NCBI GenBank assembly: GCA_964016885.1
Contig: OZ024755.1
Coordinates: forward strand, 8,060,001 to 8,124,000
From: Eledone cirrhosa
Taxonomy: Eukaryota
Reading direction: 5' to 3'
DNA: 64,000 nucleotides
The translations under genes and the position numbers were made by a program. Below are positions 38,340 through 40,888 of this stretch, piece after piece. Each line of letters opens with the position of its first letter. Position 1 is the first letter of the stretch. The notes beneath the pieces were generated by a model. That model worked only from the letters and a program-made list of their open reading frames with translations. It was not told the DNA's origin and did not search any database.

Positions 38340-40229
38340 CTTTCCGATGGAGAAATTCTCGAATATTCTTCTAATACTTGATTAGTAAACCTTTTTACTA
38401 TGAGCTTGAAAATCTTATAAGAAAAACCCACTGGGCAAAATATATAATCAGTTTCTTCCTCTGTTGATTATGATTGGTCTAGATTGATGATGTCACATAC
38501 TGAATTTGTTATAGTGGTGGCTCCAGTGATGCTGTATATGGGATTTTCTCGAGGTCTATGCCAAAGAAATAAGAGAACCCACAATAAAATAAATAAATGA
38601 ATAAATAAATAAATAAATAAGCAAACAAAATAAAACAAAATATTATTGCAATCGTGCCTAAAAAACACAATTATTTGTTTGTCACGTGAACGTGAATTTT
38701 ATAATTTTTCTCTTCATATTTGTCATGGTATTCAATAAGTAGCATTTAAAGACTGTCAGTGGTAAATGTTGATATAAAAGACTAAGATATTTCAAGGACC
38801 CACAGACCTTAAATAAGATATTTCAATTTATGGAAGGGTATAAAAAGATTTAACTGTTTCTTATCTCTTCTTTTCCCCATTTCCTTTTATTTTTATTGTA
38901 TTTTCCTTGTATTTTTTAAATTTTATTTCGTCTGATATGTAATGGGTTTTAGATATCTGCCCCTGTCTGCCATGGTTTACACGGACGATTTAATTGGTTA
39001 AACAAATAAATAAATAGATAGATAGATAAGTAAATATATAAATAAATAATTCTGGTAAATCTAACTTGTCAGGTCCCTTGAAGTTTCTGCTTATTTAATT
39101 AACTTCAGCAAAATTTGTTACTTTGACAAGGTTTGCGAAATATCACCGTTCTAACATATTTCCTTAAAAATATTAGAATCATATTACGTTTTTGTAGAAC
39201 ATGATCATATAATGAAATATTAAATAGCCAAATAAGTATTTTTTTGCTAAATAAAATAATAAACAGAGTGACATATTTATTTCTAATGTATTATATTAAT
39301 TTACTCAGTAAGTGATAACCTGTTTTGGAGACGTATGCATTTAAGTAAGATTTTAAAAATAAATAATCTTCCTATCTTTCTCTGTCCCTTACTTTCCCTG
39401 TCCCTCTCTTTCTCTAGCTCTACCTCTCAAGACATTCCTTTCTGTATGTTGAAATAGGGAACACTCTATTGTTTAAAAAACAAAACAAAACAGTTAATAT
39501 AATAAAATCAAAAGGTCCGGAAGGAAGGGTATTGTATATATCAGTAAAGCAATGCAGAAATATTCTGATGAAAGTAGGTCTTTTATTTTTTAAATTGTGA
39601 TTCTCTTCTACAGTTTGGACATATTTTTTGTTTTATTTATTCGTCTGCTGTAATATGCTTACTGTACATAAAACCATTCGGTCTCTGAGAATGCTGACGC
39701 CGTAAAAATAATGATTTTTAAATAATTGTTTCTACTTTTGGCACAAGGCCAGCAATTACCCAGTTTTAAATAATACCAGCTTTTTATGAACGTAAATCTA
39801 TTTTAAAAAAAAGTGTTAAGAATCTGTGTGTGGGAGTGTTTAGTAAATAATTAGAAAAACATAATAGTAAAAGAAAAAAATACAATTATGATTTGATGAA
39901 ATGAACCAAGAATTAGAGAATTATAAATAAAAACAATATATGTGTTGAGGTTAGTAGGATTGTTAAAAGAGACTTGCCTTTTTAATATATATATATATAA
40001 TATATATATATATATATATATATATATATATATATATATATATATATATATATAAGTATATATGTATATATATATATATATATATATATATATATACACA
40101 CACACACACACACATATATATATATATATATATATATATATATATACGTTATTCCGGGTTGATTCGGAGGTAACCACAGTAAGTAAGGTACTCAATACAT
40201 TGCAGAGTATAAAAGTTTTAATATAGAAG

Positions 40230-40280
40230 AGATTCTACAGGACTAGAACTGTTTCATTCTTTAGAAATCATCAGGAATCT
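40230..40280 (-). ncRNA. Type-I hammerhead ribozyme
   Basis: Exact reverse complement of 40376-40426. Confidence 0.75.
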
Positions 40281-40375
40281 GGGTATCAAAAAATAAAAAT
40301 GGTACTTAGACCTTCTCTAAAACAAACATACAAGTGGTAGAGACCTATAAATACCATTTTTATTTTTTGATACCC

Positions 40376-40426
40376 AGATTCCTGATGATTTCTAAAGAAT
40401 GAAACAGTTCTAGTCCTGTAGAATCT
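40376..40426 (+). ncRNA. Type-I hammerhead ribozyme
   Basis: AGATTC-CTGATGA-TTTCTAAAGAAT-GAAA-CAG ttctagtc CTG-TA-GAATCT; 6-bp stem I; predicted cut after 40420. Confidence 0.75.
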
Positions 40427-40888
40427 CTTCTATATTAAAACCTATATATATATATATATATATATATATATAAATATATATATATATATATATAAATATA
40501 TATATATATATATATATATATATATATATATATATATATATATATATATATATATATATATATATACTTGGTGTAAATGGAAGATATAACAAAATAAGCT
40601 AGTTGATTTCTAGAAAAAACTGAAACTTGATGATGGAATAATTCGAAGAGAGTAACACAAGGAAAGGGGGAAGGGGAGATAGAGAAAGAGGTCAACTGGG
40701 GAGAAAGAATGTTTTTTATGCGTACGACAGCATGTATAATTTTGGGTGTCAGATATTTATTACATCTAAATTATACATTCAAAAGCTCACACTCTCTCAA
40801 CCGTTCTTCCACTTACTCCTTAGAAATTCTTTAAAACAAACATACTTTAATTCAATGAAATATGCTGATGAACACCAAATCGGAATCC

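Follow-up and report, generated by a model that had tools for sequence, protein, structure and literature searches.

The window analysed here, the whole 64,000-nt stretch of Eledone cirrhosa DNA, is AT-rich and dense in microsatellites. It contains a TMEM169 ORF (6614-7300; best named relative in Argonauta hians, 77%, which marks the DNA as octopod-like), similar vWA-domain genes with Thr-rich exons in tandem on the minus strand (26655-33652 and 51613-59418), and a helix-turn-helix ORF at 17000-17347 (-), which we take to be the N-terminus of a Tc1-type transposase from its appearance. Three copies of a 700-760-bp repeat, 90-96% alike (27553-28265, 34956-35712 and 45062-45774), lie beside TATG/AC microsatellites, the first with a weak C2H2 zinc-finger match (27655-27882). 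A SINE-like repeat of about 190 bp occurs in more than ten copies (including 5067-5251, 18107-18313, 24515-24721, 54077-54273 and 55717-55909). The subject of this report is an inverted pair of hammerhead motifs at 40146-40441; to its right stands a 194-bp inverted repeat pair, 88% alike and about 640 bp apart (40889-41080 / 41718-41911).

Anatomy of the inverted hammerhead pair

The longest perfect inverted repeat of the pair is exactly 90 bp (40215-40304 / 40352-40441, spacer 47 nt), and an identical 51-nt type-I hammerhead motif is found in both arms on opposite strands (40230-40280, minus strand; 40376-40426, plus strand), with cores starting at 40274 (-) and 40382 (+), 108 nt apart. Both motifs possess the catalytic core and the three-stem type-I topology, with a stem I of 6 bp, a stem II of 3 bp plus a U-U at positions 10.1/11.1, a stem III of 4 bp with an 8-nt loop, and a GUA site. 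The cleavable A is predicted at 40420 in the right motif (cut after 40420) and at the mirror position 40236 in the left motif (cut between 40236 and 40235). Inverted-repeat and descriptor analysis confirmed what an earlier note on this DNA had said of the perfect arms, the intact cores and these motif features. The descriptor (stem I of at least 6 bp, stem III of at least 4 bp) matched three times in the window, compared with one match across 30 block-shuffled windows; the third match, a complete hammerhead at 36302 (-) that lay outside the earlier finding, belongs to a sister insertion described below (copy B).

The pair is asymmetric, with a tail of 67-69 nt (40146-40214) on the left copy only. 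On the minus strand, the left copy leads from the ribozyme through 21 nt and the tail into a (TA)n/(CA)n tract (39985-40146). The right copy has this module on the plus strand, up to the exact point where the tail would begin; a (TA)n tract (40443-40566) follows. At the locus, a single 3' module occurs in two copies joined 5' to 5', and two complete ribozymes are present because both truncations fall upstream of stem I. The non-autonomous character proposed earlier holds for this copy, which has no ORF. The reported distance of about 1.8 kb upstream of the gene B start codon fits an ATG at 38339 (-), which in the inferred gene model starts a signal-peptide-like exon of 15 codons, with a GT donor behind it.

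Related insertions in the window and in sequencing runs

Copy B (36174-36368, minus strand) is 96% identical to the pair, with five differences in 134 nt, and consists of a tail (36174-36242) and two arms (36243-36368). Tail and outer ends are the same as at 40146-40441, and the inner junction is different: the fold-back of the arms lies at the core's 5' edge, which leaves the minus-strand hammerhead intact and the plus-strand hammerhead without stem I. An old, diverged relative with a degenerate core and no visible inverted arm lies at 43257-43364 (+; 71% over 110 nt). Four further stubs with the same order of arm, arm and tail and of other sequence, at about 1910-2079, 36397-36589, 44054-44240 and 47276-47750, all stand beside TA tracts; two have a hammerhead-like motif reduced to its 3' half, and in two the descriptor pattern found none. 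This brings the number of such stubs to six in 64 kb, from at least four sequence families.

The stubs at 1910-2079 and 44054-44240 form a second family of two copies in TA tracts, with different fold-back points, a tail of about 77 nt, and a hammerhead-like motif, present as its 3' half, that has a palindromic loop; an 11-nt tail motif is common to this family and that of the hammerhead pair. A third family is represented at 36397-36589 (56-bp arms, 81-nt tail), in the same TA tract as copy B, where no hammerhead core was found. The fourth, at 47276-47750, has imperfect arms (80% over about 420 nt), a left tail of about 56 nt and TA tracts outside; the descriptor pattern found no hammerhead core in it.

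Four sequencing runs (of 18 listed; three organism codes) were aligned to 40147-40351, which is 205 of the 296 bases of the pair, at 82% likeness. The hammerhead module belongs to a family that is clearly very repetitive, summed contig depth not being usable as a copy number: the 205-nt stretch was covered by 9013 of 16,285,364 contigs in run X1, 125 of 6,943,267 in X4, 15 of 13,709,327 in X5, and 6743 of 12,467,656 reads in X16. Loose ends of 519 X16 reads at 40149 and of 422 at 40214 lead into microsatellite and mark two 3' termini that bound the tail, and the same boundaries are found in copy B. Insertion against (TA)n or another microsatellite is seen in the loose ends of X1, X5 and X16 and in both of the close copies in the window.

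The inner junctions vary. Among the 15 joints listed (of 23), 12 are strand changes at varied places and three are direct tandems of 76-78 nt, found in X1 and X16, which join 40289-40293 to 40216/7 and have tail-less upstream units. Seven of the 12 listed strand changes have an end at 40272-40277, and the joint 40277-40277 occurs in six contigs and 40 reads. Loose ends at 40308 (nine contigs in X1, one in X5) yield a consensus equal to the reverse complement of 40337-40351. Since the family continues in this way, the right copy (40337-40441, plus strand; inverted, tail-less and 5'-truncated) is 105 nt long, 15 nt more than the 90-bp arm, and the left copy, with family likeness to about 40308, is about 162 nt. 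Between them lies a junction filler (40309-40336), where depth is zero from 40315 in all four runs; an 11-nt piece in and next to it (40330-40340) matches the family's upstream sequence in the opposite orientation. At 40228 and 40298, both arms carry what are minority alleles in X1. These common minority alleles suggest that both arms came from the same template; the identity of the arms could also be explained by later gene conversion.

The listed variation within the motif appears to conserve its structure. Thirteen of the variants listed (the whole table holds 40 more) fall in 40230-40280, seven in the hypervariable 4-nt loop II, five in the outer part of stem I and one in the core; among those listed, stems II and III and loop III have none. 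The core variant, at G12, reaches 0.25% of depth in X1 and 344 of 4290 reads in X16. Two unphased changes in stem I, 40232 A>C (in 727 of 2658 X16 reads) and 40278 T>G (in 91 of 1069 X16 reads), would in combination replace an A-U pair with C-G. An alternative 6-bp stem I is indicated by loose ends to either side, these too not phased on single molecules. No variant affects U10.1 or U11.1 among the 40 variants listed. The family is characterized by fixed outer termini, variable inner junctions and structure-conserving variation.

Depth in X1 drops about 60-fold from the ribozyme to 40301-40307 and falls steeply past 40277-40280, which is partly a reference artefact because other subfamilies diverge from 40278. 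Upstream of 40277 lies heterogeneous, non-microsatellite sequence, with a loose-end agreement of 0.41-0.63. One reading frame of this low-agreement consensus may resemble an endonuclease C-terminus; it was not used as evidence.

Hammerhead class and predicted folding

The Rfam search named in the earlier note as a check on the hammerheads went against it, with no hammerhead at gathering score across the window and none among the 31 matches with E<=10 in 40100-40500. The miRNA-family matches found there were below gathering score and reflect the hairpin only. The G10.1-C11.1 pair of the minimal hammerheads of Penelope-like elements (PLEs) is absent; its place is taken by U-U both at the locus and in copy B. 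According to a review (PMC6765202), Lunse and colleagues (2017) reportedly described PLE hammerheads with short stems.

A Pfam search of the 140 ORFs of the window (62 aa or more, low-complexity ORFs dropped) found no reverse transcriptase (RT) or GIY-YIG domain. In viral contigs, the hammerhead pattern matched 41 times, with no match aligning to the element at E<=0.01; metagenome contigs gave two matches, neither with a 5' core upstream, and prokaryote genome contigs none. In four of the 41 viral matches stem I measures 5-6 bp; these appear to be unrelated hammerheads. Three phage-type viral contigs (L011, L020 and L024) carry, near position 3001, unrelated type-I hammerhead-like motifs with a 6-bp stem I. 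Within the literature available, a search for octopus and cephalopod hammerheads turned up no account of a PLE hammerhead family from octopods. The available parts of two genome papers state that 235 Rfam hammerheads were counted, without analysis, in the giant squid genome (PMC6962438), and that PLEs make up 6.83% of the Octopus vulgaris genome, with recently active families (PMC13282606).

The 51-nt monomer is predicted to prefer an alternative fold (-7.6 kcal/mol, against -4.2 kcal/mol for the active one), with pair probabilities of only 0.007 for stem II and 0.04 for stem III. Loop III has a centred 4-nt palindrome that is compatible with a dimeric helix III, for which cofolding predicts -12.8 kcal/mol, compared with -1.4 kcal/mol per monomer hairpin. 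The claim that a transcript of either strand contains a ribozyme stands as far as sequence goes, but the antisense arm comes first on both strands, so that read-through RNA is predicted to bury the ribozyme in a 90-bp duplex, from which the hammerhead could be forced only at a predicted cost of 85.3 kcal/mol on either strand (75.2 kcal/mol in copy B). RNA starting inside the spacer would pay only 3.4 or 5.5 kcal/mol. Folding also predicts an AC-rich stem-loop beside the tail's distal end.

Origin of the pair

We consider it likely that the head-to-head pair is not a two-ribozyme device and that it was left as an insertion scar by a Penelope-like retroelement of the endonuclease type, one that targets (TA)n. 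In such an event, the RT-endonuclease would nick both strands of the TA tract and reverse transcription would be primed from both nicks, one cDNA starting at the distal start site (40146-40148) and including the tail, the other at the proximal start site (40215). Both cDNAs would stop early, at about 40308 and 40337, and the truncated cDNAs would be joined 5' to 5' with a short filler. Priming from both nicks, early stop and joining are steps that we infer ourselves; twin priming for PLEs was not found in the literature. The ribozyme would do its work in the parent transcript, probably as a dimer via the palindromic loop III or with the help of protein, and any read-through RNA of the stub would be expected to form the duplex described above.

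The retroelement origin, Penelope-like affinity and microsatellite targeting put forward in the earlier note are supported by the two 3' termini against (TA)n, the tail, the partial tandems, the structure-conserving variation and the published architecture of PLEs. Insertions of endonuclease-bearing (EN+) PLEs are, in the accessible text of Craig et al. (2021, PMC8557442), truncated at the 5' end and frequently accompanied by a neighbouring truncated copy in inverse orientation and by a tail on one side, and the Neptune and Naiad clades prefer (TA)n. The locus has the 5' truncation, the inverted 5'-truncated copy next to the 5' end, the tail at one end and the (TA)n target, and partial direct tandems with a tail-less upstream unit occur in X1 and X16; a hammerhead near the 3' end is also known from canonical PLE clades (PMC8557442, in part). 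Among hammerhead-bearing EN+ PLEs, where its structure would place the family, a Neptune-type element is the better guess, because Naiads are without canonical hammerheads. Inverted terminal repeats of variable size flank Penelope in Drosophila virilis, according to the portion of PMC2377424 consulted.

The minimal hammerheads of PLEs, as far as the available text of PMC4209133 describes them, resemble the present motif in being of type I, with a palindromic loop 3, a predicted dimer, thousands of dispersed copies and opposite-strand pairs. They differ in having G10.1-C11.1 instead of U-U and a stem II of 6-8 bp instead of 3 bp plus U-U, whereas the locus has a real 4-bp stem III with an 8-nt loop and a 6-bp stem I. 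In Schistosoma, paired minimal hammerheads, lying 100-700 bp from each other on opposite strands, were ascribed to probable truncated PLEs (PMC4209133, same portion). The earlier claim of a distinct system defined by two divergent complete ribozymes is not supported, given this precedent and given that copy B has one intact and one broken ribozyme, that junctions vary among copies, and that four other stubs in the window contain half a hammerhead or none. The Poseidon protein of Anolis carolinensis (PAc) nicks and extends both strands; two RT start sites bound the tail, and ribozyme cleavage is not needed (Frangieh et al. 2024, PMC11167929, in part). Like PAc, the locus has two putative RT start sites downstream of the hammerhead that define the tail, an AT-rich target of which both strands would be nicked and extended, and the predicted AC-rich stem-loop at the distal end; unlike in PAc, where the ORF starts in stem II, no ORF follows the hammerhead, and the accessible main text of that paper contains no head-to-head product of twin priming (PMC11167929).

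Several observations count against a Penelope-like scar. The tail of 67-69 nt is longer than the 30-40 nt given for Neptune and Naiad in the text available to us, and the copy differs from these elements in having no ORF (PMC8557442); the window's ORFs include none for RT or GIY-YIG, and viral, metagenome and prokaryote contigs hold no relative. The hammerhead has U-U for G10.1-C11.1 and a shorter stem II than usual, is missed by the Rfam models and folds unfavourably as a monomer, and the depth fall together with the joint ends at 40272-40277 exceeds the expectation for random truncation, in part as a reference artefact. Most likely, 40146-40441 is ordinary retroelement debris, and what it presents is a new hammerhead family of an already described type of insertion scar. 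Knowledge of the dense stubs is useful for annotation, where a MITE or a miRNA hairpin may be called in error. Of modest research value are the family-wide U10.1-U11.1 hammerhead motif, a candidate ribozyme, and the young scars, which number in the thousands, have both outer ends fixed and would allow a census to test how PLE inverted structures form.

The depth peak on ribozyme plus tail, with its steep fall past 40277-40280, and the ends of seven of the 12 listed strand changes at 40272-40277 fit a second reading, in which the family would be a dedicated derivative that is not autonomous. Acting in trans, a Penelope-like protein would copy a discrete RNA of about 135 nt, from the 5' edge of stem I to the tail, and leave the same head-to-head scars. 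That copy B pivots at stem I agrees with this, and retrozymes, reported in the available part of a preprint to be non-autonomous PLE derivatives (Li et al., bioRxiv 10.64898/2026.07.22.740005), set a precedent. Transcription would possibly start from a TATA box 30 nt upstream; the TATA-like octamer at this distance from stem I of the right hammerhead (40346-40353, +) is weak and predicted, and the octamer is present 40 times in the window. We nevertheless regard a discrete RNA as rather unlikely, in that the heterogeneous, non-microsatellite sequence upstream of 40277 is as expected of several longer subfamilies, the copies at the locus extend 28 and 39 nt past stem I, and the active fold of the 135-nt RNA is predicted to be disfavoured (-15.1 against -20.2 kcal/mol for the preferred fold).

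A bolder and still more doubtful form of this reading may be put as follows. The mobile unit would be an RNA of about 135 nt comprising only the U10.1-U11.1 ribozyme and the tail. It would begin with the first base of stem I, and a TATA box, retained by the right copy, would precede it by 30 nt. A Neptune-type protein, acting in trans, would copy this RNA through twin priming at two RT start sites; the unit would be a SINE-like parasite of Penelope elements in very high copy number in octopods, and some stubs would launch, from the right arm, a ribozyme RNA free of the antisense arm. If a discrete 135-nt RNA were real, it would add a SINE-like PLE parasite and an RNA with a defined 5' end at the ribozyme.

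Far less probable than either is that two active divergent ribozymes cut transcripts of both strands, as a retrozyme-like system, for circular RNA or to regulate the adjacent vWA gene. In favour of this, the two motifs are identical and intact, direct tandems of 76-78 nt exist in the family, and the predicted folding cost for RNA initiated in the spacer is small. Non-LTR retrozymes are, in the consulted part of Cervera and De la Pena (2020, PMC7229834), similar in being non-coding and PLE-derived and in having a type-I hammerhead, and the family shares short direct tandems with them, but the locus is an inverted pair and not a same-strand tandem. Same-strand tandems, about 220-390 bp in the species quoted, and circular RNAs are described for retrozymes in the accessible text of PMC7229834 and of bioRxiv 10.64898/2026.07.22.740005. 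Retrozymes need such tandems, and divergent ribozymes are unable to excise a unit; a retrozyme at 40146-40441 was rejected, its ribozymes lying on opposite strands and the tandems elsewhere in the family. Copy B, moreover, has lost one ribozyme, the penalty predicted for read-through RNA is large, and the zero depth at the junction means that it is not a recurring unit in the four runs. The element also stands outside the inferred gene, 1.8 kb from it; the idea that this copy regulates gene B was set aside, distance being the sole evidence considered.

A MITE, fold-back DNA element or replication-slippage palindrome with chance likeness to a hammerhead, which would suit the perfect 90-bp arms, the TA-rich flanks and the lack of an Rfam hammerhead match in the window, is very improbable in view of the variable centre, direct tandems, loop-restricted variation, centred palindrome in loop III and excess of descriptor matches over shuffled sequence, and a MITE was rejected because the one-sided tail and variable junction do not agree with terminal inverted repeats around a fixed centre.

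In the inferred model of vWA gene B, copy B would fall within intron 1, where its intact ribozyme would be in the sense orientation. Its perfect hairpin of 61-63 bp in the pre-mRNA would be a candidate substrate for A-to-I editing.
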